DNA from: a virus
Taxonomy: Duplodnaviria; Heunggongvirae; Uroviricota; Caudoviricetes
IMG/VR virus record: IMGVR_UViG_2529292909_000010
Direction: 5' to 3' (one strand)
Length of the DNA: 15,937 nucleotides
Position numbers and translations under genes: made by a program. The notes beneath the pieces are model-generated. The model was not told where the DNA came from. It made no database searches and saw only the letters and a list, made by a program, of their open reading frames with translations. Below are positions 1 to 15,739 of the stretch, piece after piece (within the stretch, counting starts at the first letter, position 1; every line of letters starts with the position of its first letter).

Positions 1-1119
1 TTAAATAACCAACTTAACCCATTCCTGACCTCGGGTATCGTTATAGCGATCGGTGGTAGCCTGGACTTTATGTCCCAGTAATGTTTTTGTATCGACACCC
101 TGTGCGCGGTACAACCGTTCTGACAGGGAGCGTTGTTCATGAAATGTTGGCGGTGTTTTTCCTGCTGGTGGAATTATTCCAGCCAGATCTCGCGCTTTGG
201 CGAAGTAATCGCTCAGGTTGTCTTTACTCATCGGTTTTGGTTGTTTCTGGTGCCTACTATGGATTAGATATGGACTTAATATTCTGTCTCGGCACCCATC
301 AATAACTTCTTTTAACGTTATCCCAATGGCATCACAGCGTAGTGTAAGCGGTAACGCCAGGCGCATTCCGGTTTTTCCTTGGGTGATATGCAAGTGTTCG
401 TTCCACACATCTGAAAAACGCATGTGGCAAATGTCATCACGGCGCTGACCAGTAACAATCGCAAGAAGCATTGCGTTACGGATAAAGTGTTTTTCAGGCG
501 TTGCGTTGTAAATTTTTTGCCAGTCTTCCAGGGTGAGTCTGGCTCTGGTTACTTTAGGGATCGGTTTACGGGTAGCCTCCGGAGGATTCCATCCAGGAGG
601 AACTTCTCCTGCATGCTGTGCTTCTTTATAAATATCAACCCATAATCCACGATTTACTCTCGCTGTGCTGACCATGTCTTTATCCAGCCAATCATCCAGT
701 ATTAATGCAAAGTCTCTTACTTCCAGTTCTTTCAATGGATGGTTTCCCAGACGGGAAACCAGGTATGCAGCCATTCGGGCTTTTTCTTTGTGAGTTGTAG
801 CTGCAATATCTCCATTTTTCAGTCGCGTGTCCTGTATTTTCAGATATCGATCAACCCATGCCTTTAATCTGATACCCCGACGTTTTGTTGCTGACGGACT
901 TTCATCAATTTTGCGCATGAAATATTCAGCTTCTGCTGCAGCTATTCGCTGATTGGCTGTGGAAGCGATTTTTTCTGCCTTACCTTTGTCTGTTCCGAGT
1001 CCGTGAAATTTTCCAGTCACAGGATTTTTATACTGGTAGTAAACTCTGCCAGTTCTGCGATCAAACTTTTCGTAAAGACCGGCTACGTCAGTGCTGTTTT
1101 TTCGTGGCCTCGGTGACAT
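1..1119 (-). CDS. int: Phage integrase, lambda-type tyrosine recombinase (372 aa)
   Basis: Full ORF with stop at 1-3; AAGGAG Shine-Dalgarno about 10 nt upstream of the ATG at 1119; C-terminal LGHKVQATTDRY resembles the His...Tyr catalytic region of tyrosine recombinases; sits next to an excisionase-like gene at the prophage edge. Confidence 0.9.
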   Translation of the reverse strand: MSPRPRKNSTDVAGLYEKFDRRTGRVYYQYKNPVTGKFHGLGTDKGKAEKIASTANQRIAAAEAEYFMRKIDESPSATKRRGIRLKAWVDRYLKIQDTRLKNGDIAATTHKEKARMAAYLVSRLGNHPLKELEVRDFALILDDWLDKDMVSTARVNRGLWVDIYKEAQHAGEVPPGWNPPEATRKPIPKVTRARLTLEDWQKIYNATPEKHFIRNAMLLAIVTGQRRDDICHMRFSDVWNEHLHITQGKTGMRLALPLTLRCDAIGITLKEVIDGCRDRILSPYLIHSRHQKQPKPMSKDNLSDYFAKARDLAGIIPPAGKTPPTFHEQRSLSERLYRAQGVDTKTLLGHKVQATTDRYNDTRGQEWVKLVI

Positions 1120-1357
1120 GAGTTAAAATCTCCTTCAGTGCATCATCATCGCCAGTATGAATTTCCGGCGCAATTCCCGTTTCACCAGGCCCAACAAATA
1201 CTGCTCGGCGATCTATCAGCCAACGCCCACGAATTTTTTGTGGCCTTGGAACGATGTATCCTAGTTTTCCGTATTTCACCAGGGTAGTGTTTGTTATTGG
1301 GAGACTGAACCGTTTTGGTTTCCACTCGTCGAGCGTTATCAGGTACTGTTCGCTCAT
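1088..1357 (-). CDS. xis: Excisionase (Xis-like), about 89 aa from the ATG at 1357
   Basis: Small ORF immediately upstream of int, overlapping its start by about 30 bp; remembered lambda Xis-like pattern (YLITLDEW...VPRPQKIRGRW); GGAG Shine-Dalgarno before the ATG at 1357; the ORF track begins at a GTG at 1366. Confidence 0.7.
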   Translation of the reverse strand: MSEQYLITLDEWKPKRFSLPITNTTLVKYGKLGYIVPRPQKIRGRWLIDRRAVFVGPGETGIAPEIHTGDDDALKEILTHVTEATKKQH

Positions 1358-1418
1358 GGCTATCACTCCGGAACGCGCCAGTTGCAGAATATCAACGACA
1401 ACTGGCGACGGTTGAACA

Positions 1419-3338
1419 TTAAAAATCAGCCTGACTCGGGATCAGTTTTTGCCAGATAACTGAAACGTATTTTGCCTGGTAACGGGCGTCATCAAGTGCA
1501 TTATGGCGCTCACCTTCGAATGGAATAGCCGTTCTGGCATCGAAGTCTATGGCTTTCCCCAGCTCAACGATTGTGCGTACATCGCGATCGTTGTAGTAAC
1601 GCCACGGGCAGGGGATCCCCTGCCGTTCGTATGAACGGCGCAAAATCGTGTTGTCGAAGTTGGCTCCATTTCCCCAGACCTGAACAAAAAATTCACCGGA
1701 GTTTTCGTCGATAAATTCCCGCAATTGTAACAGTGCATCATCTAACGGGATTTCATCGGTCATAATGGCAGATTGCGCTTCGCGTGATTGCTTAAGCCAC
1801 CATTTAATGGTGTCCCGATCAATGACTCCGCCAGCAGTTTCCAGATCGATAGTCTTACTAAATTCCGGTCCCATATCTCCGGTTTGCGGATCGAAAAATA
1901 TTGCACCTATTGAGATGATCGGGGCATCAGGATTTTTTCCCATGGTTTCAAGGTCGATCATTAGATGGTCACACGTCCTGCTGGTGGATGTGATTTCTTG
2001 ATGACCGTTCACCTTAATTGAGTGATCTGCCGTCTCGCCAGTTTCATTATCGCTATCGTGATGCTGATTGCCGCCAGTGTTCTCTTTGTGTGGATGTTCA
2101 GCGCCTTCCATTTCCTCCGGATCATCTTCCTGAACTTCAACCTGATACTCTTCATCGAATGTTTCCTGGTATGTTGCGTCGCCCATCACCGCGCCACAAT
2201 CAGGGCAGTTGCCGCCGCCGGTCTGACCGCAGGCGGTGCAGATCTTTTCCGGTTCCTGTTGCACTACTGGTTCAGGTTGTTTCGTTTCTGGCTCGTTTTG
2301 TTGCGTACTTGGGCTGTTTTGTTCCGCTTTCTGGTCGTTCTGTTCCGTTTCTTGCTGGTTCTGGTTCACAGAATCGCGGGTCTGGATCCCATTAACCCAT
2401 TTCGGATCATTCGGGTCGCTAATCCCTTCAACAAATTCACCACGTGATACTGCAAGCAGTTCATCGGCGTCAGGCTGGCTGATATTGGCTGCCTGCATAA
2501 TTTTGTTTACTTCGTCAGCGGTAACTTTTACTGACCCTGGTTGTGCGGTCGTGTCAGATGCACCAGTATTTTGTTGTGAACCTGAGTATGTACCGTTTTT
2601 GCGGGCGAAATATTCTTCTTTCGTGATTTCAGTAGCCCCAGCAGACAGCGCCTTATCCAGACCAGAAAGTTTGTTTGCGCGACCGTATTTTTCGCCATCC
2701 TTGTCGGTGAAGAGGAAGTAGAACGGCCCCTCACGTTCTACAGATGGTTCGACTTCCACTTTGCATTCGGTTTTTTCGTTGTCTGGAATTGCCGTTTCCA
2801 CTGCATCAGTTTCTGGTACTGGCGACGAGAGAGTATCAGTTGCGCTCTGATTTGTTCCTTCATCTTCAAACACGCCCTTTGTAGTCAGGTATTCAGTAAT
2901 GTATTTGTTCAGTGCCACAGGGTCTTTGTGAATGTCGATCGGACGTTCACGGACAAGGCCAAAAATAGTCTGGCGGTCGTAGCGAAGGGCATCAGGCTGT
3001 TTGCGCATTGATGCCGAGATACGCTTCCAGTCTTCGCGGTCGTTGTCGATAACTTCATTTTTTGCCCAGCGATGGATGCTGCCGTCAATGTTTCCGGCAT
3101 CCACATCACCAGGCCAGAGAGCGTAGGCCAGTTCGTCATCTAGTGTTTTCCATGTCTGCTTGTATTCGCGATGAATGGCAGCAATGACCGGGTTGATTTT
3201 TCCTGTTGAATTTTCAGTGTGCTGTTGATTGGCTCTGGCGCGGGCGAGATCAACAACAGACGTGTATTTTCCGGCTTCCTTGCGTTCACCTTCGCGACGT
3301 TTTTCCAGATGCGCATCTCTGCCTGAATTTCGGGCCAT
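1419..3338 (-). CDS. Phage exonuclease with C-terminal DEDDh 3'-5' exonuclease domain (639-aa ORF; true N-terminus uncertain)
   Basis: C-terminal about 180 aa carry DEDDh-like motifs (MIDLETMG; WGNGANFD; HNALDDARYQAKY). The centre is an acidic/Gln-rich low-complexity linker containing a CxxC...CxxC zinc-ribbon-like element (CTACGQTGGGNCPDCG). No clear Shine-Dalgarno before the ATG at 3338, and the first about 200 bp overlap the upstream ORF out of frame. Confidence 0.7.
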   Translation of the reverse strand: MARNSGRDAHLEKRREGERKEAGKYTSVVDLARARANQQHTENSTGKINPVIAAIHREYKQTWKTLDDELAYALWPGDVDAGNIDGSIHRWAKNEVIDNDREDWKRISASMRKQPDALRYDRQTIFGLVRERPIDIHKDPVALNKYITEYLTTKGVFEDEGTNQSATDTLSSPVPETDAVETAIPDNEKTECKVEVEPSVEREGPFYFLFTDKDGEKYGRANKLSGLDKALSAGATEITKEEYFARKNGTYSGSQQNTGASDTTAQPGSVKVTADEVNKIMQAANISQPDADELLAVSRGEFVEGISDPNDPKWVNGIQTRDSVNQNQQETEQNDQKAEQNSPSTQQNEPETKQPEPVVQQEPEKICTACGQTGGGNCPDCGAVMGDATYQETFDEEYQVEVQEDDPEEMEGAEHPHKENTGGNQHHDSDNETGETADHSIKVNGHQEITSTSRTCDHLMIDLETMGKNPDAPIISIGAIFFDPQTGDMGPEFSKTIDLETAGGVIDRDTIKWWLKQSREAQSAIMTDEIPLDDALLQLREFIDENSGEFFVQVWGNGANFDNTILRRSYERQGIPCPWRYYNDRDVRTIVELGKAIDFDARTAIPFEGERHNALDDARYQAKYVSVIWQKLIPSQADF

Positions 3339-3889
3339 TTGGCACCAGGCTTACATTTATGCTTAACCCACCCGATGGCATGCAGCTTAAGCTCCGGATA
3401 CATAGCGTTAACTTCTGGCATTTTCATCAACGCTTCAACGATATGGCCGTCGAATGTTGCCATGTCTTCCTGCAACAATTCCTGTGCGCTAATCACCATA
3501 TCAACAGTGATGTTTTCACATGTGTCGAACTTAACCATGAGAGCGTTCTGTACTTCAGGGGCCAGCTTGTCAAAAGTGACGTTCATCAGATCGGATTCAG
3601 TCTCAACCGGGACAAAAGAAGCAGAATCCTCATCCCAGCGGTTTTCCTGCATATATTCAGCATCCCATGAATCGAGGGCAGGGCGGGGTATGCCAGGTTT
3701 ATCCTCGCAGATAATAAATTTATAAGCGCAGTCCTGAGCAGCCGGATAATGTTCCAGGAACTGCCAGTGAAATTTTGCTCGAGCACGGCGTTCGTCGCCA
3801 GCTTCAATGGCTGTGGCTACAGCCACAGCGCCTTCTTCCCTTGTTGCCAGTTCGTCAGGAATGGCGGCGCAAATAAAGACTTTACTCAT
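3140..3889 (-). CDS. Hypothetical early-left operon protein (249-aa ORF; C-terminal about 50 aa doubtful, possibly the N-terminal part of a frameshifted fusion with the exonuclease)
   Basis: Long ORF with a GAGG Shine-Dalgarno before the ATG at 3889; protein-like composition for roughly the first 195 residues; the 3' end overlaps the 639-aa ORF by 199 bp in another frame, with an A5/T5 homopolymer at 3300-3304 in the overlap. Confidence 0.55.
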   Translation of the reverse strand: MSKVFICAAIPDELATREEGAVAVATAIEAGDERRARAKFHWQFLEHYPAAQDCAYKFIICEDKPGIPRPALDSWDAEYMQENRWDEDSASFVPVETESDLMNVTFDKLAPEVQNALMVKFDTCENITVDMVISAQELLQEDMATFDGHIVEALMKMPEVNAMYPELKLHAIGWVKHKCKPGAKWPEIQAEMRIWKNVAKVNARKPENTRLLLISPAPEPINSTLKIQQEKSTRSLLPFIANTSRHGKH

Positions 3890-3982
3890 TTTGTTTTAAC
3901 CTCATGACAGATTTAAGGATGAACAAATCCCTGCCATTGCTGGCATATAAGAATGAAACCGGATATTTATTACGGAACTGTT

Positions 3983-4174
3983 TTAAAGACCTGCCGGGAT
4001 TTCGATATTATCCTGGTGAATAACTTTATCGACCGGGTAACAGTTACCGGGAATTTTCTGTTCGGTTGCTGCAGTCATACACTCCTGCATTGTCCTGTGA
4101 ACACTGACTGCAATATCAACTGGCTCTCCGGAAACAAGAAAAACTGTCAGAACAAGTGCAAATGCTGTATTCAT
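3983..4174 (-). CDS. Small hypothetical protein with N-terminal signal-peptide-like segment (about 63 aa from the internal Met)
   Basis: From MNTAFALVLTVFLVSGEPVD: hydrophobic N-terminal stretch followed by a polar region; its ATG (4174-4172) overlaps the stop of the upstream ORF in an ATGA arrangement, suggesting translational coupling. Confidence 0.35.
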   Translation of the reverse strand: MNTAFALVLTVFLVSGEPVDIAVSVHRTMQECMTAATEQKIPGNCYPVDKVIHQDNIEIPAGL

Positions 4175-4359
4175 TGCCAGCATCCTTTTTGTATCGGACG
4201 TAAACGGGCCAACATTGAAAGAATGCATATTTTATTTAATAGCTCCCGTTCGTGTTTTCTCTTGTTAATGGCATCTTCAGTAAATACAGGGTTACTGATA
4301 GTGACACCAATTTCAAAACAACCTTCAGACGTATTAACGTTTGGTAATAACGTTTTCAT
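4171..4359 (-). CDS. Small hypothetical early protein (about 62 aa from the internal Met)
   Basis: ORF in the leftward early operon; TGAGGG Shine-Dalgarno about 9 nt upstream of the ATG at 4359; stop overlaps the start of the next small ORF. Confidence 0.35.
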   Translation of the reverse strand: MKTLLPNVNTSEGCFEIGVTISNPVFTEDAINKRKHERELLNKICILSMLARLRPIQKGCWQ

Positions 4360-4848
4360 TATCGCGCCCTCAACAATGAGTTTTGTGATGCGGTGCCTGG
4401 TGCCTCCAGGTGACGTTAACCAGTTAACAATTAACGCCGGATACAGAGAATCCAACCATAACACTGTTTTTGGTTTTAACTGTTCCGCGTGCGCTTAGCC
4501 GCATTCACCGCATCACAAAATTCACTTTAAAAAGGGCGGCAGAGCAGTCACGGAGTAAAACTGATACCGCCAAACGTCACCAGAAAATTGATAACAGAGG
4601 GCGTTGCAGCGGGGTTGTCACTTAAGCGTATGGTCAACCTGACAACCCGGTGTCCTCAACGGGGGAAGGAATAACCCCGCCATACTTACCGCCGCGCCAT
4701 TTCGCGGATTGCCACAACCAGAAGCGCACGGTCGAAGAAATTTAACGACAAGACTTATATGCAAAGGGATCTCGCCGTGCGCTTTCGTGTTATGCCCTGA
4801 CTTTTCAGGGTAAATTAACCTGTGGAAACCTGTTTTTACTGGCGCTAA

Positions 4849-5088
4849 TCAGTTAGCGTTTCTGGCTAACCAGCGATGCGCGGCAGCTTCGGTTTTAAAC
4901 GTTTTACTTTTGGTATACGTCATCGCGGTAAACGTGCCGTCCTGATTGGGAAACACGCCACATACCAGAGATTCGTTGTTGCCAAGCTCGATAGTATCCA
5001 TGCTGACCTCATTTCCCCTTAACGCTGGGGTAGCGGAACTAAAAACCTGCTGCGCTGTTATACAAAGTGTTCCCGCCGTCATGTTCAT
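4849..5088 (-). CDS. Small hypothetical protein, first gene of the leftward early transcript (possibly YdaF-like; start may be the internal ATG at 5001, giving about 50 aa)
   Basis: ORF directly downstream of the PL-like promoter; GAGG Shine-Dalgarno before the internal ATG at 5001; the YdaF resemblance is an unverified recollection. Confidence 0.45.
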   Translation of the reverse strand: MNMTAGTLCITAQQVFSSATPALRGNEVSMDTIELGNNESLVCGVFPNQDGTFTAMTYTKSKTFKTEAAAHRWLARNAN

Positions 5089-5182
5089 ACGCCTCGGGCT
5101 GGCTACTTAATCCCTGACCACTGCCGGGTAACTCTAGGTATTGCCCTGTATTGTGTGGGACGGGATGGGTTGGTATGGGAAA

Positions 5183-5250
5183 ACTATAGGAAATGCCTAA
5201 TTGCTTGTCAATAGGCTATGCCTAATGATTTGGGTGCGACCTAATAGGTG
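5183..5250 (-). promoter_or_regulatory. Leftward early promoter (PL-like) with OL-like operator repeats
   Basis: Minus strand reads TTGACA (5211-5206), 17-nt spacer, TATAGT (5188-5183). Overlapping near-palindromes carry the TAGGC/GCCTAA half-site (aTAGGCtatGCCTAA 5211-5225; GCCTAA 5195-5200; aCCTAAtAGGt 5239-5249). Confidence 0.6.
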
Positions 5251-5319
5251 ATGGTTTGTGGGAGAGGTAGTAGGAGTTAACTAACGGGAACTAGGAATTT
5301 CCCGTCGGACCATATAAGT

Positions 5320-5796
5320 TTAAGTTCCTGTCTTGGTGATGTTCTGGCTTTTCCGTTTTGATTCTTGATTTTTCAGATAGTTAGCTACCTTCATTTCCAT
5401 TGCGGCAATGTAGGCGCGAACGTCATGATCAACCCAACTAGGCTCCGTAGCATTTCCAGATAAGAGGAAAGCCACAATTGCTCTTTTTTCATCAGAGGCG
5501 GCTTGATAAAGGCTGTTTATGTCTAAAAGTTCACTTTTTGTATCTGAAGTGGATGGGGTTGGTATGGGGTATTCGTTAAGCCCCCAATGCTCTGGACCAA
5601 CCACATCAGAAAAGAAACGCCATAGTTCTGGAAGTTTGTCTTTACTTATCGAACCTTTCTTAATCCAGTCATGGATTGATGGTGGTTGGACTTTGAAATG
5701 ACGTGCGATTTCCGCCTTTGATTTGACGGCTCCTGATGCAATTTTTTTGTTGATGGCCTGCTCTATCGCTCGGCCTAAGTCTTTACCACTAAGCAT
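5320..5796 (-). CDS. Prophage repressor, RacR/CI-like HTH protein (158 aa)
   Basis: Divergent from the cro-like gene and sited between two operator clusters; HTH-like segment (AEIARHFKVQPPSIHDWIKKG); AGGAGA Shine-Dalgarno 8 nt upstream; same length and position as RacR in Rac-type immunity regions (recollection). Confidence 0.75.
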   Translation of the reverse strand: MLSGKDLGRAIEQAINKKIASGAVKSKAEIARHFKVQPPSIHDWIKKGSISKDKLPELWRFFSDVVGPEHWGLNEYPIPTPSTSDTKSELLDINSLYQAASDEKRAIVAFLLSGNATEPSWVDHDVRAYIAAMEMKVANYLKNQESKRKSQNITKTGT

Positions 5797-5824
5797 TGCT
5801 TAATAGTCTCCTATGCGCATCGCG

Positions 5825-5893
5825 TTAGGCAATCCCTACTCTCGAAGCGTTAGGCATAGCCTATTGACAATCGCATTAGGCTAAGCCTAATAT
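5825..5893 (+). promoter_or_regulatory. Rightward early promoter (PR-like) with three OR-like operators
   Basis: TTGACA (5864-5869), 18-nt spacer, TAATAT (5888-5893). Operators at about 25-bp spacing: TTAGGCaatcCCTAc (5825-5839), TTAGGCataGCCTAt (5850-5864, touching the -35) and the near-perfect palindrome TTAGGCtaaGCCTAA (5876-5890, overlapping the -10). Confidence 0.6.
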
Positions 5894-5920
5894 TATTGTG
5901 TGTTTTTTGGAGTTCATTCG

Positions 5921-6244
5921 ATGAAAAAAGATAACTATTCATTCAAACGAGCTTGTGCTGTTGTCGGTGGGCAATCAGCAATGGCTAGGCTTTTAGGTGT
6001 ATCTCCTCCAAGCGTAAATCAATGGATCAAAGGTGTACGTCAGTTGCCTGCTGAGAGATGTCCTGCGATTGAACGAGCAACAAAAGGTGGTGTCCTGTGT
6101 GAAGAACTTCGTCCTGATGTTGATTGGACATACTTACGACGCTCGTCATGTTATTCGCAGAATATGTCGATGAAGCAACCAAATGACGAAAACGATCATA
6201 CCCGAAGCATCAAGAGGCAAATGATTCATGAAAATCAAACATGA
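5921..6244 (+). CDS. Cro-like HTH regulator (YdaS-like, about 107 aa)
   Basis: First gene after the PR-like promoter; GGAG Shine-Dalgarno before the ATG at 5921; HTH-like segment (QSAMARLLGVSPPSVNQWIKG) resembling Rac YdaS (recollection). Confidence 0.7.
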   Translation: MKKDNYSFKRACAVVGGQSAMARLLGVSPPSVNQWIKGVRQLPAERCPAIERATKGGVLCEELRPDVDWTYLRRSSCYSQNMSMKQPNDENDHTRSIKRQMIHENQT

Positions 6245-6653
6245 GCACATCCGCATGGCGATGAATGCCTGGGCATATCCTGATGGTGAGAAAGTTCCAG
6301 CAGCTGGAATAACCCAGGCTTATTTTGAGTTGGGTATGACGTTCCCAGAACTGTATGACGACAGCCATCCGGAAGCCCTGGCTCGCAATACCCAGAAAAT
6401 TTTCCGCTGGGTAGAGAAAGACACCCCTGATGCAGTTGAAAAAATTCAGGCGTTGTTACCAGCGATCGAAAAGGCAATGCCACCTTTGCTGGTGGCCAGA
6501 ATGCGCAGCCACAGTTCAGCTTATTTTCGGGAGCTGGTGGAGACGCGGGAACGACTGGTGAGAGACGCTGATGATTTTGTCGCAGTGGCGATCGCTGGTT
6601 TCAACCAGATGAATCGTGGTGGCCCTGCAGGAAATATTGTGGCTGTGCATTGA
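6228..6653 (+). CDS. YdaT-like protein (141 aa), second gene of the rightward early operon
   Basis: Start overlaps the cro-like stop by 17 nt with an AAGAGG Shine-Dalgarno; size and position match YdaT of Rac-type prophages (recollection). Confidence 0.6.
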   Translation: MKIKHEHIRMAMNAWAYPDGEKVPAAGITQAYFELGMTFPELYDDSHPEALARNTQKIFRWVEKDTPDAVEKIQALLPAIEKAMPPLLVARMRSHSSAYFRELVETRERLVRDADDFVAVAIAGFNQMNRGGPAGNIVAVH

Positions 6654-6724
6654 CTCGCAATATTCATACCGGATCACTTCCGGCAATTTGTGAGTAAAAA
6701 GATTCGGTATCAAAAGAGGTGAGT

Positions 6725-7795
6725 ATGGCTAACGCCTGGCTCAGATTATGGCATGACATGCCAAATGACCCTAAGTGGCGAACAATTGCCAGGGTGTCAG
6801 GGCAGCCAATTGCAACAGTGATGGCAGTGTATATCCACCTCCTGGTGAGCGCGTCACGAAATGTCACGCGAGGTCACATTGATGTCACGACAGAAGATTT
6901 GGCAAGTGCGCTCGACGTGACAGAAGAGGTAATTGATTCAATTTTGCAGACGATGCAGGGGCGGGTACTTGATGGTGATTTAATCACTGGATGGGAAAAA
7001 CGCCAGGTGCTTAAAGAGGACAACGGCAATATTTCGCAAACCGCAAAATCTCCTGCAGAGCGCAAGAGGGCGCAGCGAGAGAGGGAAAGAAAGCGGGAAC
7101 AAAATGGCGATTGTCACGGCGCGTCACGAAATGTCACGCACATGTCACGACGAGTCACGACAGATAAAGATACAGATAAAGATACAGATCAAGAAGATCA
7201 AAACACTATGGTCCATGGCGTAAAAAACGCCACGAACCAGGCAGGGGATGTTCAGACCGTCAATCTTGGTCAGCCAGCAGGCACGACACCGGAAGCCGAT
7301 TCAGCGTATGCGCTGAAAGCCGATTCGGGCGCTGTGCAGCAGGTGATGACCGCAAGGCCGGAGCAATCACACCAACTGCAGCAGCCCGAAGCCGATTCTG
7401 CCATTCAGCGGGAAGCCGATCGGGTAGTCCCGGAAAACACCGGGCAGTCTGTGGGACGAGTGGATTATCCGGATGTGTTCGAACAGGTCTGGCGGGAGTA
7501 CCCGTTGCGTGCTGGGGCAAACCCGAAGAAATCCGCTTTCAGTGCCTGGAAGGCCAGATTACGCGAGGGGGTGCCACCAGAGGCCATGCTGGATGGCGTG
7601 AGGCGTTACGCAAGATACTTGGCGGCTACCGGGAAAACGGGAACGGAATTTGTTCAGCGAGCGACGACGTTTTTTGGACCGGACCGGAATTTTGAAAACC
7701 CCTGGTTGCTCCCGGTAAGCGGCACGAACAACCAGCGTTGTGTTAATCATATTTCTGAACCGGACACCGAAATTCCGCCGGGATTCAGAGGGTAA
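6725..7795 (+). CDS. Replication initiator (YdaU/O-like) with embedded iteron origin
   Basis: ATG at 6725 with AAGAGGTGAG Shine-Dalgarno (ORF track starts at a GTG at 6719); N-terminal region resembles YdaU-type phage replication proteins (recollection); two GTCACG iteron clusters and an AT-rich repeat lie inside the gene, as in lambda O. Confidence 0.65.
   Translation: MANAWLRLWHDMPNDPKWRTIARVSGQPIATVMAVYIHLLVSASRNVTRGHIDVTTEDLASALDVTEEVIDSILQTMQGRVLDGDLITGWEKRQVLKEDNGNISQTAKSPAERKRAQRERERKREQNGDCHGASRNVTHMSRRVTTDKDTDKDTDQEDQNTMVHGVKNATNQAGDVQTVNLGQPAGTTPEADSAYALKADSGAVQQVMTARPEQSHQLQQPEADSAIQREADRVVPENTGQSVGRVDYPDVFEQVWREYPLRAGANPKKSAFSAWKARLREGVPPEAMLDGVRRYARYLAATGKTGTEFVQRATTFFGPDRNFENPWLLPVSGTNNQRCVNHISEPDTEIPPGFRG
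6851..6890. repeat. Iteron cluster 1: four GTCAC(G/A) repeats at about 10-bp phasing
   Basis: GTCACG at 6853, 6863 and 6884, GTCACA at 6873; the 19-bp string gcgtcacgaaatgtcacgc is identical to 7121-7139. Confidence 0.6.
7111..7210. repeat. Iteron cluster 2 (five GTCACG at 10-11-bp phasing) plus adjacent AT-rich tandem repeat; putative replication origin
   Basis: GTCACG at 7113, 7123, 7133, 7144 and 7154, followed by cagataaagatacagataaagatacagatcaagaagatc (12-bp unit repeated twice, AT-rich). Confidence 0.6.
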
Positions 7796-7832
7796 CAGAT
7801 TTCAGGTCATGGGGTAATTTTCAGGAGGGCTT

Positions 7833-8255
7833 GTGGCAAAAGTTTTTACACAAGAAGAGCGGGAAAAAATTAAAGGGCAGGTTGTTGAACTCGTACGCCA
7901 GAGTGGGCGCGAGACGTTACGACAACTGGAAACTAAAACTGGGGCAACAAGATATCTGATGAGCGTTCTGGCCAGAGAGCTGGTTGCCAGTGGCGATGTA
8001 TACAATTCTGGCTACGGGTTATTCCCGTCTGAACAGGCTCGTAAAGACTGGCAAAATGCCCGCAAAAAACTCTCAAGGGCAAAGCTGAAGAAACCATCTG
8101 CGGTTGATCCGGACCTTATCTGGTCATTACCAGATGGCGAAATACGCCGCTACGACAGGCGTCTGAACATAATCTGTCTCGAGTGCCGGAAGAGCGAAGT
8201 TATGCAGCGCGTACTGGCGTTTTATCAGGGGAATTTTGAGGAGGTGGTGCGGTGA
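7833..8255 (+). CDS. Hypothetical protein (140 aa), replication-module associated
   Basis: GTG start with strong CAGGAGGG Shine-Dalgarno; lies where a helicase loader would be expected but is too small and shows no Walker motifs. Confidence 0.55.
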   Translation: MAKVFTQEEREKIKGQVVELVRQSGRETLRQLETKTGATRYLMSVLARELVASGDVYNSGYGLFPSEQARKDWQNARKKLSRAKLKKPSAVDPDLIWSLPDGEIRRYDRRLNIICLECRKSEVMQRVLAFYQGNFEEVVR

Positions 8256-8506
8256 GTGAATCAAAATGCCAGGTTAATGGCAACAAGATAGAACCATGTG
8301 CAGCACTGGTAAAGTCCCTTGAGCATGATGCTGAATACACGATGCGAAAAGGTCTGCTGATATACAAAATCTGGAATGAGAGTTTAACTCGCGGTCCTGA
8401 TTTTGTGATGTTGCGTTCCGGTGAATTTTCTAAATTACCAGTTCGGGTTTCATTTTGTCCGTTCTGTGGTGAAAGTCTGAAAACGTGGGAGAACAGAAAT
8501 GAATGA
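8252..8506 (+). CDS. Hypothetical small protein with Cys cluster (84 aa)
   Basis: GTG start overlapping the previous stop (GTGA); C-terminal CPFCGES motif plus upstream cysteines suggest a zinc-ribbon. Confidence 0.45.
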   Translation: MSESKCQVNGNKIEPCAALVKSLEHDAEYTMRKGLLIYKIWNESLTRGPDFVMLRSGEFSKLPVRVSFCPFCGESLKTWENRNE

Positions 8507-8810
8507 AATTAAAGAAATACCAGTAGTACGTGATGAATATGGCTGCTGGACGCATCCTGAATATGAAAAATTCTGTGACGGTCGGGAATATATTTCAACG
8601 GAAGAGTTTAACGCCTGGATGGAGGAAAATAATCTTCAATACGTCCTCTGCTTCAGAGATGAAGGATGTGCTGACCTTGATGCGTGTGATGCTGATATTT
8701 CTGCATGGGAACCGGAACGACCAGAGGGCAATGGATGGTTTATTGGTTCAATACATGACACCGAAGATGGCCCGGTTTGTGTATGGCTGAGAAATAAGGC
8801 CGAAGCATAA
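8499..8810 (+). CDS. Hypothetical acidic protein (103 aa)
   Basis: ATG overlaps the previous stop (translational coupling); protein-like composition. Confidence 0.5.
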   Translation: MNEIKEIPVVRDEYGCWTHPEYEKFCDGREYISTEEFNAWMEENNLQYVLCFRDEGCADLDACDADISAWEPERPEGNGWFIGSIHDTEDGPVCVWLRNKAEA

Positions 8811-9115
8811 AGGCTATAAACCGACTAACAACTAAATACTGAAGATTTAAATCAGAAACGATTTTTATTAAATCCTTAACCGGAGGGATTCTGCACCCTC
8901 AGAACATCAGGAGGCCGTCTGAAAGGGCGGAACAGATAATGCTTACGTTGAAACATTTTATCGACATACCAACATGGTTAGCCGTCATTGCTTTTGTTAA
9001 AATACACATCCACTTTTCTGTGCAATGTTTAACCACTGGTCATATCAAATGGCATTCATGCGAACCATGATATAGAATCATGGCTTGAGAGAGTCGATGA
9101 AAGCGCAACTATGGT

Positions 9116-9694
9116 ATGAGAGACATTGATGTAAGAAAGGCTGTGCATGCCAAGATTCTGAGAGATCATCATAAAGATCCTGACACCCTAATCATTGATG
9201 AGTTTACGATGAATCTAGGGGCTAGCAGAGCTGATATAGCAGTGATCAATGGGCTTATACATGGTTATGAGTTGAAGAGCAAGAGTGATAACTTGCTCAG
9301 ATTACCAGCGCAGGTGCAACATTACTCATCAGTGATGGATAAAGTAACTTTGGTTGTCTCTGATTGCCATCTTTATGATGCTTTAAGCATAGTTCCATCA
9401 TGGTGGGGGATAAAGCAAGTTACGCAAGGTGCACGGCAAGGTATCCATTTAAAAACAATTCGAACTAGCAAGTTGAATCCACAAGTGGACAAACTTTCCT
9501 TAACAATGCTTCTTTGGAAAGATGAATTGCTTTCCCTATTAAGTGATGTAGGGGAGCTACAGAATTTGAAAAATAAACCTAAACGCGTCTTATGGTCAAA
9601 ACTCGCCAATAGTATGGATGTTGGCGAGCTTCGTGAAGCTGTTCGAGTTAAACTTAAAGCCCGTAAAGAGTGGCGAGTTGCTCAACAACCTTAG
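9116..9694 (+). CDS. Putative PD-(D/E)xK-fold nuclease-like protein (192 aa), accessory cargo gene
   Basis: AT-rich ORF; motif arrangement E(IIDEF)...D(RADIAV)...E-x-K(GYELKS) fits a restriction-endonuclease-like active site; may belong to the family usually annotated 'sce7726 family' (unverified recollection). Confidence 0.6.
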   Translation: MRDIDVRKAVHAKILRDHHKDPDTLIIDEFTMNLGASRADIAVINGLIHGYELKSKSDNLLRLPAQVQHYSSVMDKVTLVVSDCHLYDALSIVPSWWGIKQVTQGARQGIHLKTIRTSKLNPQVDKLSLTMLLWKDELLSLLSDVGELQNLKNKPKRVLWSKLANSMDVGELREAVRVKLKARKEWRVAQQP

Positions 9695-10751
9695 TTATGT
9701 GATGGTTTTGCCCAATCCTACGCCATACCTCTGGGCTACCAAATTTATAGTTACCAGAGGGATTGGCTTTGTAGGCTTGATACTCGTTTGCATAATATTC
9801 TATGTCTCTATCTCCCGCACAGAATGTAGGCCCTGAATATTCTCGATGAGCAAGAATATCCTCACTATGTTTACCATATTGTTCATAACCAAAGCGATTA
9901 GCTACTCTTCCTCGAAATACCCAAAAGTCATTATCTCCAGAGTATCTGACGCTGGCAGATACGCTAGGGAATCGCGTCGAAAGCCTATTAAAGTCGGGGT
10001 GCTGTACTCCATAATCACTATAAATCACATTTCTGGCAAGTTCTTTTCTATTCATTAAACTCTGCCATAAAATCCACTCGATTCGAGGTTGAGAATATAG
10101 ACCAACAGAAATATCACTGAGATCTGTAGGAAATGAACCCCCAGAAAGAATCACTTTTCTGTATTCATTGAGGTGCGCCAGATTGTTTATCAATCCCATT
10201 GCCAAAGTATATAGTTCGCCGGAATTAATTTTATCCTCGGTTAACTCATCTCTTAAGTCAATAATTATATCAATATTTGATAAAGGAATTCCCAGATGAT
10301 TAATGTAATGCGTTATTAATTGTGGGTTAACCAGATCTAACGTGGTTAATCTCAAGCATATTTCATTCTGCATTAATTCATCAATCGCTCTTTTATAGTT
10401 AGATGGGCGAGTTGGTGAACTGACAGGAATAACTCTTATCCCCATATCTCTAACTTGATTAACCGCATTTATTATAGGGTAATGATCTTCAGGAGAAATA
10501 AAATGCTCTTCAATTAATAATCCATCAATATAAACACCTTGCATATCTGAGCAAGATTTTGAGACTTTCTTTCCGAACTCTATAAGAGTCTCGTTATAAC
10601 TCTTTAAGGCAATACCTGAATCAGGGTCAATTGGCACTGGTTCAATTTCGAGTAATGGCAAAATTTTTGATTTCTTTTCAATGGATAGCTGCGATAAAGC
10701 TGATAACTCAGAACGTTTCGCTTTCAGAATAGGAATATATGAAATTGTCAT
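9654..10751 (-). CDS. Large uncharacterised partner protein (365 aa), possibly P4 'beta'-family-like
   Basis: AT-rich ORF convergent with the 192-aa gene, 3' ends overlapping by 41 bp; no motif I can assign; the family assignment is an unverified recollection. Confidence 0.6.
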   Translation of the reverse strand: MTISYIPILKAKRSELSALSQLSIEKKSKILPLLEIEPVPIDPDSGIALKSYNETLIEFGKKVSKSCSDMQGVYIDGLLIEEHFISPEDHYPIINAVNQVRDMGIRVIPVSSPTRPSNYKRAIDELMQNEICLRLTTLDLVNPQLITHYINHLGIPLSNIDIIIDLRDELTEDKINSGELYTLAMGLINNLAHLNEYRKVILSGGSFPTDLSDISVGLYSQPRIEWILWQSLMNRKELARNVIYSDYGVQHPDFNRLSTRFPSVSASVRYSGDNDFWVFRGRVANRFGYEQYGKHSEDILAHREYSGPTFCAGDRDIEYYANEYQAYKANPSGNYKFGSPEVWRRIGQNHHITKVVEQLATLYGL

Positions 10752-11103
10752 GTTAATACCTTATACAGAATCAATTAACAATTAATGGTTCTTCGGACAT
10801 TGAAATTTATATCGCAAAAATTGGCAAACTCTCCTCGACTACTCACTTGTGGGTATCCTGGCGTAAAAGGAATGACTTGGCAATACCCGGTGTGATCATA
10901 AGTCATTGAAAATGATCATTTTTATCAGTCTTTCTTCCATGATGAATGCTAATGCCATTTGATTTGTTGAGGTGAAAACTGTTAAAAATCAAAACGATGT
11001 AATTGAAATGAACGTTCGGTAGCATTCACGCTTTAAATGTTTCTTTTGTGCTGATTGGATGAATTTGGGTCACTTCTGATGAGAGATGTTGCAGGAAAAG
11101 AAG

Positions 11104-11132
11104 TTGGCATTGATCTATTGGATAGTTAGAAT
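11104..11132 (+). promoter_or_regulatory. Putative hok mRNA promoter
   Basis: TTGGCA (11104-11109), 17-nt spacer, TAGAAT (11127-11132), just upstream of a leader (gcgggtgcttgaggctatctgcctcaggc) that resembles the remembered 5' end of plasmid R1 hok mRNA. Confidence 0.4.
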
Positions 11133-11308
11133 TGCTGCGGGTGCTTGAGGCTATCTGCCTCAGGCATGAACACCAAAAGGCAGATAGAGAAAAGCCCCAG
11201 TTAACATTACGCGTCCGGCAAGACGCTTAACATTAATCTGAGGCCAATTTCATGCTTTGCACATGTAGGTTAGCCTCTTACGTGCCGAAAGGCAAGGAGA
11301 AGCAGGCT

Positions 11309-11464
11309 ATGAAGCAGCAAAAGGCGATGTTAATCGCCCTGATCGTCATCTGTTTAACCGTCATAGTGACGGCACTGGTAACGAGGAAAGACCTCTGCGA
11401 GGTACGAATCCGAACCGGCCAGACGGAGGTCGCTGTCTTCACAGCTTACGAACCTGAGGAGTAA
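11309..11464 (+). CDS. hokD: Hok/Gef-family type I toxin (51 aa)
   Basis: MKQQKAMLIALIVICLTVIVTALVTRKDLCEVRIRTGQTEVAVFTAYEPEE: single transmembrane helix plus conserved C-terminal region typical of Hok/Gef; AGGAG Shine-Dalgarno before the ATG at 11309; the upstream leader resembles the R1 hok leader. The hokD symbol is from memory of the K-12 sequence and could be another hok paralogue. Confidence 0.85.
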   Translation: MKQQKAMLIALIVICLTVIVTALVTRKDLCEVRIRTGQTEVAVFTAYEPEE

Positions 11465-11476
11465 GAGACCAGGCGG

Positions 11477-11486
11477 GGGAGAATCC
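11477..11486. repeat. Target-site duplication, left copy (GGGAGAATCC)
   Basis: The identical 10-mer directly abuts both ends of the IS element. Confidence 0.55.
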
Positions 11487-12826
11487 CATAAGCGCTAACT
11501 TAAGGGTTGTGGTATTACGCCTGATATGATTTAACGTGCCGATGAATTACTCTCACGATAACTGGTCAGCAATTCTGGCCCATATTGGTAAGCCCGAAGA
11601 ACTGGATACTTCGGCACGTAATGCCGGGGCTCTAACCCGCCGCCGCGAAATTCGTGATGCTGCAACTCTGCTACGTCTGGGGCTGGCTTACGGCCCCGGG
11701 GGAGTGTCATTACGTGAAGTCACTGCATGGGCGTCAGCTCCATGACGTTGCAACATTATCTGACGTGGCTCTCCTGAAGCGGCTGCGGAATGCCGCCGAC
11801 TGGTTTGGCATACTTGCCGCACAAACACTTGCTGTACGCGCCGCAGTTACGGGTTGTACAAGCGGAAAGAGATTGCGTCTTGTCGATGGAACAGCAATCA
11901 GTGCGCCCGGGGGCGGCAGCGCTGAATGGCGACTACATATGGGATATGATCCTCATACCTGTCAGTTCACTGATTTTGAGCTAACCGACAGCAGAGACGC
12001 TGAACGGCTGGACCGATTTGCGCAAACGGCAGACGAGATACGCATTGCTGACCGGGGATTCGGTTCGCGTCCCGAATGTATCCGCTCACTTGCTTTTGGA
12101 GAAGCTGATTATATCGTCCGGGTTCACTGGCGAGGATTGCGCTGGTTAACTGCAGAAGGAATGCGCTTTGACATGATGGGTTTTCTGCGCGGGCTGGATT
12201 GCGGTAAGAACGGTGAAACCACTGTAATGATAGGCAATTCAGGTAATAAAAAAGCCGGAGCTCCCTTTCCGGCACGTCTCATTGCCGTATCACTTCCTCC
12301 CGAAAAAGCATTAATCAGTAAAACCCGACTGCTCAGCGAGAATCGTCGAAAAGGACGAGTAGTTCAGGCGGAAACGCTGGAAGCAGCGGGCCATGTGCTA
12401 TTGCTAACATCATTACCGGAAGATGAATATTCAGCAGAGCAAGTGGCTGATTGTTACCGTCTGCGATGGCAAATTGAACTGGCTTTTAAGCGGCTCAAAA
12501 GTTTGCTGCACCTGGATGCTTTGCGTGCAAAGGAACCTGAACTCGCGAAAGCGTGGATATTTGCTAATCTACTCGCCGCATTTTTAATTGACGACATAAT
12601 CCAGCCATCGCTGGATTTCCCCCCCAGAAGTGCCGGATCCGAAAAGAAGAACTAACTCGTTGTGGAGAATAACAAAAATGGTCATCTGGAGCTTACAGGT
12701 GGCCATTCGTGGGACAGTATCCCTGACAGCCTACAAAACGCAATTGAAGAACGCGAGGCATCGTCTTAACGAGGCACCGAGGCGTCGCATTCTTCAGATG
12801 GTTCAACCCTTAAGTTAGCGCTTATG
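11487..12826 (+). mobile_element. IS186-like insertion sequence (IS4 family), about 1340 bp
   Basis: Terminal inverted repeats cataagcgctaacttaagggttg (11487-11509) and its reverse complement (12804-12826); internal transposase matches the IS186 InsL sequence as I remember it; flanked by a 10-bp direct repeat in GC-rich target DNA. Confidence 0.8.
11542..12655 (+). pseudogene. IS186 transposase, apparently frameshifted (N-terminal about 67 aa in one frame, remaining about 330 aa in another)
   Basis: ORF 11536..11745 encodes the canonical N-terminus (MNYSHDNWSAILAHIGKPEEL...) then terminates; ORF 11654..12655 continues the protein (...QLHDVATLSDVALLKRL...) in a different frame; the junction is near gggcgtcagctcc (about 11731-11743), where one extra base relative to the remembered sequence would account for the shift. 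Confidence 0.5.
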
Positions 12827-12836
12827 GGGAGAATCC
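12827..12836. repeat. Target-site duplication, right copy (GGGAGAATCC)
   Basis: Identical to 11477-11486. Confidence 0.55.
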
Positions 12837-12883
12837 CTCGCCACCTCTGATGTGTCAGGCATCCTCAACGCACCCGCACTTAA

Positions 12884-12908
12884 CCCGCTTCGGCGGGTTT
12901 TGTTTTTT
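12884..12908 (+). terminator. Rho-independent terminator, probably the original hok transcript terminator displaced by the IS186 insertion
   Basis: GC-rich hairpin cccgc-ttcg-gcggg followed by ttttgtttttt. Confidence 0.6.
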
Positions 12909-14322: not shown

Positions 14323-14697
14323 ATGCTCATAGATTTGGTTTTACCTTACCCGCCGACGGTGAACACTTACTGGCGACGCCGTGGCAGCACATATTTTATC
14401 TCGGAGGAGGGAAAGCGTTATCGCCGGGCTGTGGCGCTTATTGTTCGCCAGCAGCGGCTGAAATTAAGCCTGTCCGGAAGGCTGGCGATAAAGGTGATTG
14501 CAGAGCCACCGGATAAGCGTCGTCGCGACCTGGACAATATCCTGAAAGCACCGCTGGATGCGCTGACGCACGCGGGGTTGTTAATGGACGATGAGCAGTT
14601 TGATGAAATCAATATTGTACGTGGAAAGCCAGTATCTGGTGGACGTCTGGGGGTGAAGATTTACCCCATAATGCTTGAAGGGCAGGTCAAAAAATGA
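14323..14697 (+). CDS. rusA: RusA-family Holliday junction resolvase (124 aa)
   Basis: Conserved-looking PDKRRRDLDNILKAPLDALT segment and overall length typical of RusA; AAGAGGTGA Shine-Dalgarno; stop overlaps the start of the antiterminator gene (ATGA). Confidence 0.85.
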   Translation: MLIDLVLPYPPTVNTYWRRRGSTYFISEEGKRYRRAVALIVRQQRLKLSLSGRLAIKVIAEPPDKRRRDLDNILKAPLDALTHAGLLMDDEQFDEINIVRGKPVSGGRLGVKIYPIMLEGQVKK

Positions 14698-15497
14698 AAC
14701 TGGAAGATTTACCGAAATACTACTCCCCAAAATCCCCTGGCCTGACCGATGCATCGGCCTCAACGTCAAAAGATGCGCTGAGTATCACTGATGTGATGGC
14801 CGCGCAGGGCATGACACAGAATCGGGCTGAGATGGGGTTTTCTGCGTTCCTTGGGAAAATGGGCATTAGTATGAATGACAGAGAGCGGGCAACAGAATTG
14901 CTGACAGAATATGCACTCAGTCGGTGTGATCGCGTGGCGGCGTTAAGAAAACTCCCGGCAGAAATAAAACCGGCAGTAATGCGTATTATGGCTTCGTATG
15001 CGTTTGAAGATTATGCCCGTAGCGCGGCGAGCAAAAAACAGTGCCCCTGCTGTCACGGAAAAAAATTTATTGAAAGCGAGGTTTTTACAAACAAGATCCA
15101 GTATCCGGATGGTAAGCCGCCAGTGTGGGCAAAGTGCACAAAAGGCGTGTATCCGTCTTACTGGGAGGAATGGAAAAAAGTCAGGGAGGTGGTAAAAGTT
15201 GCCTGTCCGGAGTGTGGAGGGAAGGGAGAGGTATCCACTGCCTGTAAAGATTGTCGTGGGCGCGGTGTTGCCATTCATCGTGAAGAGTCGGAAAAACAGG
15301 GTGTGCCGGTTTTCAGAAACTGTCAGCGTTGTGGTGGGCGTGGCTATGAAAGATTACCTTCAACGGAGGCATTTAATGCCATATGTAATGTAACCGATGC
15401 CATATCTCTTGATACATGGAAAAAACAGTTAAACGTTTTTACGATACGCTGGTGGTGCAGTTTGATATTGAAGAAGCATGGGCAGAACAACAACTGA
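14694..15497 (+). CDS. Late-gene antiterminator, Q-like (QuuQ-type, 267 aa)
   Basis: Several CxxC pairs (CPCCHGKK; CPECGGKG; CKDCRGRG; CQRCGGRG); position immediately after rusA and before a promoter/terminator-like intergenic region; resembles Qin QuuQ (recollection). Confidence 0.65.
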   Translation: MKLEDLPKYYSPKSPGLTDASASTSKDALSITDVMAAQGMTQNRAEMGFSAFLGKMGISMNDRERATELLTEYALSRCDRVAALRKLPAEIKPAVMRIMASYAFEDYARSAASKKQCPCCHGKKFIESEVFTNKIQYPDGKPPVWAKCTKGVYPSYWEEWKKVREVVKVACPECGGKGEVSTACKDCRGRGVAIHREESEKQGVPVFRNCQRCGGRGYERLPSTEAFNAICNVTDAISLDTWKKQLNVFTIRWWCSLILKKHGQNNN

Positions 15498-15519
15498 AAA
15501 AGGTGACCAGATAGCTTTG

Positions 15520-15618
15520 TTGATTTTTCCCGAATCTGTGGTAAATTTGCCCTAACGATGGGCGTTTTATGCCTGACGTTAGAAGATTTTTACACCCGTC
15601 GCCAGGCGGGTTTTTTTA
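15520..15618 (+). promoter_or_regulatory. Putative late promoter (PR'-like) with downstream intrinsic terminator (tR'-like)
   Basis: TTGATT (15520-15525), 16-nt spacer, TAAATT (15542-15547); downstream hairpin cccgtc-gcca-ggcggg (15595-15610) followed by a T7 run (15611-15617). Confidence 0.3.
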
Positions 15619-15739
15619 TGACTGAAATCACGCCAGTACAGTAAACGCGCTGGTGGCGGTGAATACCGGTCTTTCAGCTTGCTGGCTTTTTTGACAAGAG
15701 TTATTGGTGTGTCACGTTAACCGGAAAAGGGAAAAAGAC

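Follow-up and report, generated by a model that had tools for sequence, protein, structure and literature searches.

IS186 and the hok loci of Escherichia coli

The hok/sok locus of plasmid R1, whose architecture is said to have been described by Franch, Gultyaev and Gerdes in 1997, consists of a promoter, a leader with the tac and ucb elements, mok, hok, a GC hairpin, the fold-back inhibition element fbi and a terminator. In the R1 model, pairing of tac with ucb is the mark of the 3'-processed mRNA, which can be translated and bound by Sok. The same elements are found in the prophage locus described here, which lies in a window of 15,937 nucleotides (the whole stretch of DNA analysed; IMG/VR record IMGVR_UViG_2529292909_000010, Caudoviricetes). 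The closure of the R1 mRNA 5' end on its 3' end could be reproduced in silico for the window, and the R1 mechanism is applied to it by analogy rather than by sequence comparison. A difference from R1 is that mok is in frame with hok in the window.

In E. coli K-12, two hok loci carry IS186. At hokC (gef), the distance from the stop codon to IS186A is exactly 22 bp; the element displaces fbi and the 3' end, and its 10-bp duplication (GGAGTGATCC) lies within a GGGG-N6-CCCC hairpin. At hokE of strain MG1655, IS186B is co-directional with the toxin gene, starts 21 bp after its stop codon and is flanked by the 10-bp duplication GGAGTAATCC. Both genes are followed by the homologous hairpin GGCGGGG-N6-CCCCGCC with IS186 in the loop. 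A preference of IS186 for GGGG(N6/N7)CCCC targets is mentioned in a passage of PMC6925257 that cites saiSree 2001, and the IS-bearing K-12 loci are regarded as non-functional in a passage of PMC7232551 that cites Pedersen & Gerdes 1999. The gef/hokC mRNA is about 644 nt long and ends inside IS186, and fbi and processing are thought to be disrupted (PMC3562002). However, K-12 gef is still transcribed and antisense-regulated despite the IS (PMC3562002), so that the term 'inactive' may be too strong. An IS186 copy about 22 bp 3' of hok that uncouples the 3' regulatory end has thus been known from the literature since 1999, and the combination of the IS with hokD is already annotated in public genomes. 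What the window adds is a case in a prophage in which the transposase gene carries a private and probably inactivating frameshift. Its value lies mainly in annotation, as the hok/sok locus of this prophage is probably disabled in its delayed-killing regulation.

The likeness of the window to the IS-bearing K-12 loci, which had been pointed out in a first-pass annotation of the DNA, turned out to be exact, with the distance of hokC, a distance one base pair longer than in hokE and a homologous hairpin loop. A K-12 hokC locus rebuilt without the IS aligns with the window over its whole length, including tac, ucb, the hairpin and fbi, and its mRNA shows the same closure of tac on fbi. Unlike in the window, the IS in hokC has the opposite orientation; moreover, the junction is only about 91% identical, and hokC adjoins nhaA outside any prophage. 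The hokE locus shares the co-directional IS186 with the window, but it is a different, chromosomal paralogue that adjoins entD and does not belong to a prophage. Its transposase is intact, whereas that of the window is frameshifted. The closest K-12 gene by type is hokD (relF) of the Qin prophage, which has the same Hok type and 3' region (98.97%, the value for the hok region, and 96.4% identity) and occupies a similar prophage position upstream of a DUF968 gene, ydfU. However, it carries no IS, and the match begins only at position 11295 of the window because relBE lies upstream in place of the leader, mok and sok part. In the uninterrupted hokD-type loci of ST866, Stx phages, mEp460, Rac and VT2-Sakai (annotated as 'gef homolog'), no IS interrupts the sequence from hok through the hairpin and fbi to the terminator.

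The prophage and its hok/mok/sok module

The window is, as judged from its gene content, the early (int-to-Q) region of a lambdoid prophage. It begins with a lambda-type integrase gene (1-1119, minus strand) and ends shortly after the gene of a Q antiterminator (14694-15497). Between both genes, an exonuclease, DicF, YdaS/YdaT-type regulators, replication genes, DUF977, the hok locus, DUF968 and RusA are encoded. The full-length gene of the antisense sRNA DicF (4534-4585, minus strand; Rfam RF00039, 76.7 bits), together with the integrase, YdaS/YdaT, RusA and Q, marks the window as such a region.

The toxin gene hok extends from 11309 to 11464 on the plus strand and is predicted to encode a HokD-type protein of 51 amino acids, the approximate size (about 50 aa) of a Hok/Gef toxin, with a Pfam HOK_GEF (PF01848) score of 82.9 bits against a cut-off of 22; its TAA stop codon ends at 11464. 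In close loci, the matching gene is annotated as HokD (WP_000813254.1), and the HokD coding sequence is reported to be toxic if overexpressed (10.1101/2025.08.07.668861). The mok ORF (11252-11464, plus strand; 70 aa) is in frame with hok and shares its stop codon, a layout that equals that of K-12 mokC/hokC, which are annotated with the same stop coordinate. A candidate hok/mok promoter (TTGGCA-17-TAGAAT; 11104-11132, plus strand) matches 10 of the 12 consensus positions. It is the sole promoter-like site between 11000 and 13100 and lies just 5' of the mRNA start implied by Rfam. The 5' leader of the hok mRNA (11139-11314, plus strand) was recognised over its full length by the Rfam model RF01794 (119.8 bits, gathering score 59). 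It contains tac (11139-11150) and a ucb-like element (11192-11198), both on the plus strand, as well as the Sok target region and the start of mok. By homology to the annotated K-12 sokC, a putative sok antisense RNA gene can be placed on the minus strand at 11184-11260, with approximate ends. In comparison with K-12 hokC/sokC, the leader/Sok region of the window has an insertion of 18 nt (11208-11225), so that Sok would be about 77 nt long here and not 59. The same insertion amounts to 16 nt in a hairpin loop in the Rfam alignment, and the uninterrupted ST866 locus shares it. These features make up a complete type I toxin-antitoxin module, hok/mok/sok of the hokD type, of which the promoter, the leader, mok and hok are all intact beside the IS.

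The first-pass annotation had proposed a comparison with an uninterrupted homologous locus, and such a locus exists. Removal of the IS and of one repeat copy yields an empty site of 651 bp, all 651 bases of which are identical in the chromosomes of E. coli ST866 and ST865. The copy of ST866/ST865 resides within a related prophage whose flanks are 98.8-99% identical to the window, and the two alignments of the flanks of window and ST866 overlap by 12 nt of the duplication. The two prophages also have neighbouring genes in common, namely those for an sce7726-family protein and a Beta protein on the upstream side and, downstream, a small ORF, DUF968, RusA and the Q antiterminator. At a coverage of at least 80%, 2665 of the 5426 complete E. 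coli genomes contain an uninterrupted locus of the window type, and the uninterrupted locus is also found in about 100 sequenced lambdoid/Stx phages. One of the phages, vB_EcoS-689R5 (ON470583.1), differs at 14530-15669, where the hok flanks span 1140 bp compared with about 475 bp in its sister phages. The length of this span points to a different insertion, of about 0.7 kb, close to hok.

The IS186 copy and its target site

The element behind hok is a 1340-bp IS186 (11487-12826, plus strand), a member of the IS4 family that carries the RefSeq label 'IS421 family', and its transposase gene is co-directional with hok. The identification as IS186 in the first-pass annotation is borne out, since the window copy differs from K-12 IS186A and IS186B (1339 bp each) at three positions only: GA is changed to AG at 11703-11704, which replaces Met by Val, and an extra G is present at 11733. 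The terminal inverted repeats are perfect over 23 bp (CATAAGCGCTAACTTAAGGGTTG; 11487-11509, with the reverse complement at 12804-12826). The inverted-repeat arms of 25 nt given by the program result from two bases that are ambiguous with the target duplication. The distance of 22 bp between hok and the IS and the identical 10-bp repeats on both sides were also described correctly in that annotation. From the hok stop codon to the first IS base (11487) there are exactly 22 bp, made up of GAGACCAGGCGG and the 10-bp repeat, and the left copy of the target-site duplication (GGGAGAATCC; 11477-11486) is identical to the right copy (GGGAGAATCC; 12827-12836). Here, the program gives an identical repeat of 12 nt at a spacing of 1350 nt, because one base per side is ambiguous with the IS ends.

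The insertion point is the loop of a GC-rich hairpin (GGCGGGGG-AGAAT-CCCUCGCC) directly 3' of the hok stop codon. With GC flanks on both sides, the target GGGGGAGAATCCCT deviates from GGGG(N6/7)CCCC by one mismatch. The reconstructed 14.6-kb segment contains no perfect GGGG(N6/7)CCCC site and three sites within one mismatch, one of which is the insertion site.

The transposase gene (11542-12655, plus strand; DDE_Tnp_1, 94.1 bits) is disrupted. The extra G at 11733 breaks the 370-aa reading frame after codon 63 and leads to a stop at 11745, which leaves pieces of 69 aa and 333 aa. The DDE domain is encoded only by the separate 333-aa ORF (11654-12655), and the window copy has no intact 370-aa DDE transposase. 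A 71-nt probe covering the changes in the window IS was compared with 8403 IS186 places in 2165 E. coli genomes and matched none of them exactly. The frameshift allele is therefore either private to the window copy or a sequencing error, and the frameshift and the GA to AG swap could both be errors of this kind. Unless this is the case, the window IS186 is a degenerate copy. Because of the frameshifted transposase, it looks immobile in cis and is probably non-autonomous.

Folding of the hok mRNA with and without IS186

The first-pass annotation rightly placed the IS between hok and its terminator, and all of its coordinates were confirmed. Both the fbi element (CCTCAACGCACCC; 12863-12875, plus strand), which is complementary to tac except for a single bulged C, and the intrinsic terminator of the original hok mRNA (12882-12908, plus strand) lie beyond the IS. 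The terminator consists of a 7-bp stem (12882-12899) with five GC pairs and a TTCG loop, followed by a T-run (TTGTTTTTT) to about 12908. Whereas tac, hok, fbi and terminator form one unit in the uninterrupted locus, the 1340-bp IS separates fbi and the terminator from hok in the window, and the insertion has pushed fbi and the terminator 1350 bp away from hok.

The uninterrupted mRNA was modelled as positions 11139-12908 minus the IS, which gives an RNA of 420 nt. In its minimum-energy fold, nucleotides 1-12 (GGGUGCUUGAGG, tac) pair with CCUCAACGCACCC (fbi, 12863-12875) just 5' of the terminator hairpin. The fbi element is conserved in K-12 hokC, for which the rebuilt mRNA shows this pairing as well. 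The minimum-energy fold of the rebuilt K-12 hokE mRNA had no tac-fbi closure, and no covariation is therefore claimed.

To represent transcripts that lack fbi, RNAs starting at 11139 and ending at 11486, 11560, 11700 or 11900 were folded. Three of these RNAs have their 5' end paired with nucleotides 54-60 (AAGCCCC, ucb-like), and in the RNA truncated at 11700 the 5' end lies in a local hairpin instead of a tac-ucb pairing. Since the fbi-less transcripts fold to the 'activated' tac-ucb form, the pool of stable inert mRNA should vanish. A substitute fbi within the IS was considered and rejected: inside the element, no fbi-like complement to tac was found at up to two mismatches with an ungapped pattern, which also misses the real, bulged fbi. 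Moreover, the plus strand of the IS contains no convincing intrinsic terminator, with a weak 5-bp candidate at 12543 only.

The 1770-nt read-through RNA (11139-12908) behaves differently from the truncated RNAs. Its minimum-energy fold keeps the tac-fbi pairing (-669.2 kcal/mol, compared with -656.8 kcal/mol if tac-ucb is forced) and is lower in energy by 12.4 kcal/mol than the best structure with tac-ucb pairing. Because the read-through RNA still closes tac on fbi, equilibrium thermodynamics alone predicts no loss of fold-back, and the idea that thermodynamics proves such a loss was rejected. Whether the locus is inactivated thus depends on the point at which transcription actually stops. 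The interpretation in the first-pass annotation is supported as a whole; its functional part, that the IS should disturb fold-back and processing of the mRNA 3' end, is plausible and in keeping with the K-12 literature (PMC7232551, PMC3562002), but the predicted pairing of tac with fbi survives in the read-through RNA.

Recurrence of IS186 behind hok genes

For a survey of the site, a junction probe of 400 nt (200 nt of hok and 200 nt of the IS) was compared with the 5426 complete E. coli genomes at a coverage of at least 80%. The junction is present in window orientation in 939 genomes and with inverted IS in 819, the latter including a hokD-type locus at 99.5% identity. As many genomes probably share inherited events, the two figures are not event counts. 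Among the records with window orientation, 47 are of the hokD type with at least 96% identity, and the rest are mostly mokC loci with about 91.5% identity. About 33 of these 47 records are plasmids of 90-216 kb, which indicates that the hot spot has been hit on plasmid-borne copies too. In the plasmid records H159-H191 (e.g. NZ_CP081721.1, 94.7 kb), a hokD-type gene and a co-oriented IS186/IS421 are found at 96.3-96.8% identity.

The best IS-bearing match to the window among the complete E. coli genomes has an identity of 99.1%. The closest chromosomal examples (L001) have an 11-bp duplication and other indels. In L001, the closest co-oriented hokD-IS186 locus, the transposase is also annotated as frameshifted, at a different position. 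Two IMG/VR records carry the IS at the same site in inverted orientation. One of them (L007, IMGVR_UViG_2534682157_000008) has the same 10-bp duplication, and both IS ends are present. The other one (L006, IMGVR_UViG_2606217106_000005) represents the same prophage as the window, with 99.86% identity over window positions 1-11509; the stretch concerned is 11644-11921 of this record, and the contig ends inside the element. The opposite orientation in both records could be due to an independent insertion or to an inversion of the IS.

IS186 thus recurs at several hok paralogues and in both orientations, on chromosomes, in prophages and on plasmids. The differences among these loci point to separate events, and several independent insertions at the one site are the simplest reading. 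IS186 has a strong hot spot in the GC hairpin 3' of hok genes; neither this recurrence nor the frameshift in the window copy was noted in the first-pass annotation. None of the approximately 100 sequenced phages with the locus has the IS-bearing version at a coverage of at least 80%.

Proposed consequence of the insertion and alternative explanations

We consider it probable that the insertion of IS186 into the hairpin target 3' of hok disabled the regulation of delayed killing in this prophage hok/mok/sok module. According to this model, IS186 transposed into a preferred GC-flanked target, which is the DNA encoding the hairpin loop 3' of hok. Transcripts from the hok promoter would run into the IS and may end there by Rho-dependent or fortuitous termination, and the long untranslated stretch behind the frameshift would make termination within the IS likelier. 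Alternatively, the transcripts would need about 1.35 kb more before reaching fbi. Without a timely fbi, tac would pair with ucb, and the RNA would adopt the conformation of the 3'-processed mRNA that is bound by Sok and can be translated. In this form, it would be cleared rapidly by Sok and RNase III, and the reservoir of stable, inert full-length mRNA behind delayed hok/sok killing would be lost. The locus would still be transcribed and controlled by Sok, yet it would be disabled as a post-segregational or abortive-infection killer, comparable to K-12 hokC and hokE. We infer the loss of fold-back from kinetics, from termination or decay within the IS and from the K-12 precedent; behind the frameshift, where the RNA is largely untranslated, decay or termination by Rho is probable.

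The main competitor of this model, to which we give a clearly smaller but appreciable chance, is a neutral hit of the hot spot, in which the IS would be present only because the DNA of the hairpin suits the target preference of IS186, and after which the hok locus works as well or as poorly with the IS as without it, either because read-through transcripts still fold onto fbi or because the locus was already silent. The tac-fbi pairing in the minimum-energy fold of the full read-through RNA and the lack of a strong plus-strand terminator within the IS both speak for a neutral hit. The two orientations are also similarly frequent, as a target preference without an orientation-dependent benefit predicts. 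Furthermore, IS-free chromosomal hok loci do not cause post-segregational killing either, according to a statement in bioRxiv 10.1101/2025.08.07.668861 that refers to its ref. 26, and the phenotypic effect of the IS may therefore be small. However, the 1350 nt that precede fbi in the read-through transcript delay its synthesis, at a time when the truncated RNAs are already in the tac-ucb form. The frameshift leaves about 900 nt largely untranslated, which would favour termination by Rho, and in the K-12 precedent the mRNA does end within the IS (PMC3562002). An artefact of assembly or sequencing, with the IS misplaced by repeat collapse, is so improbable that we have rejected it. IS186 is a multicopy element at which contigs often break, as in the contig of L006, and the private frameshift and the dinucleotide swap might be read errors. 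Against this, the duplication is perfect and lies at a consensus target, both junctions are contained in one continuous sequence, and the junction is found independently in many finished genomes and, with both IS ends, in L007.

It has also to be considered that the insertion was selected as an inactivation or domestication, the IS behind hok being enriched since it benefits the host to disable the toxin or to dampen the downstream genes for DUF968, RusA and Q. That the insertion recurs so very often, at several paralogues and on chromosomes, prophages and plasmids alike, agrees with such a benefit, and the absence of the IS version from the phages is compatible with tolerance mainly in resident prophages. 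Nevertheless, we regard selection as rather unlikely, as the near-perfect IS186 consensus site would alone be enough for the recurrence and many of the genomes with the junction probably share ancestral hokC insertions. Moreover, the set of phages is small, and the packaging limit would disfavour an extra 1.3 kb anyway. Still more doubtful is a broader idea, namely that the recurrence of IS186 behind hok exceeds what target preference explains, either because it is selected as a means by which hosts disarm the hok modules of prophages, plasmids and chromosomes or because the constitutive hok promoter drives the co-oriented transposase. If the promoter coupling were true, hok loci would be launch pads for IS186, and the frameshifted copies of the window and of L001 would be survivors of counter-selection. 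The wider question is whether recurrence at hok sites reflects selection against active loci or target preference, which a single locus cannot decide. For the window itself, the disabling of delayed killing by the insertion is the reading that we prefer.

Genes upstream of the hok locus

The genes upstream of the hok promoter encode the two proteins shared with the ST866 prophage. The sce7726-family protein of 192 aa (9116-9694, plus strand) is recognised by the PADLOC model 'cll' (E=2.4e-28), and the Beta protein of 365 aa (9654-10751, minus strand; PF14350) by the PADLOC model PD-Lambda-2_C (E=1.8e-41). Only one component of PD-Lambda-2 was recognised in the window. Both genes are convergent, overlap by 41 bp and lie about 0.35 kb 5' of the hok promoter. 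Judging from these similarities, the pair may be anti-phage cargo of the prophage.
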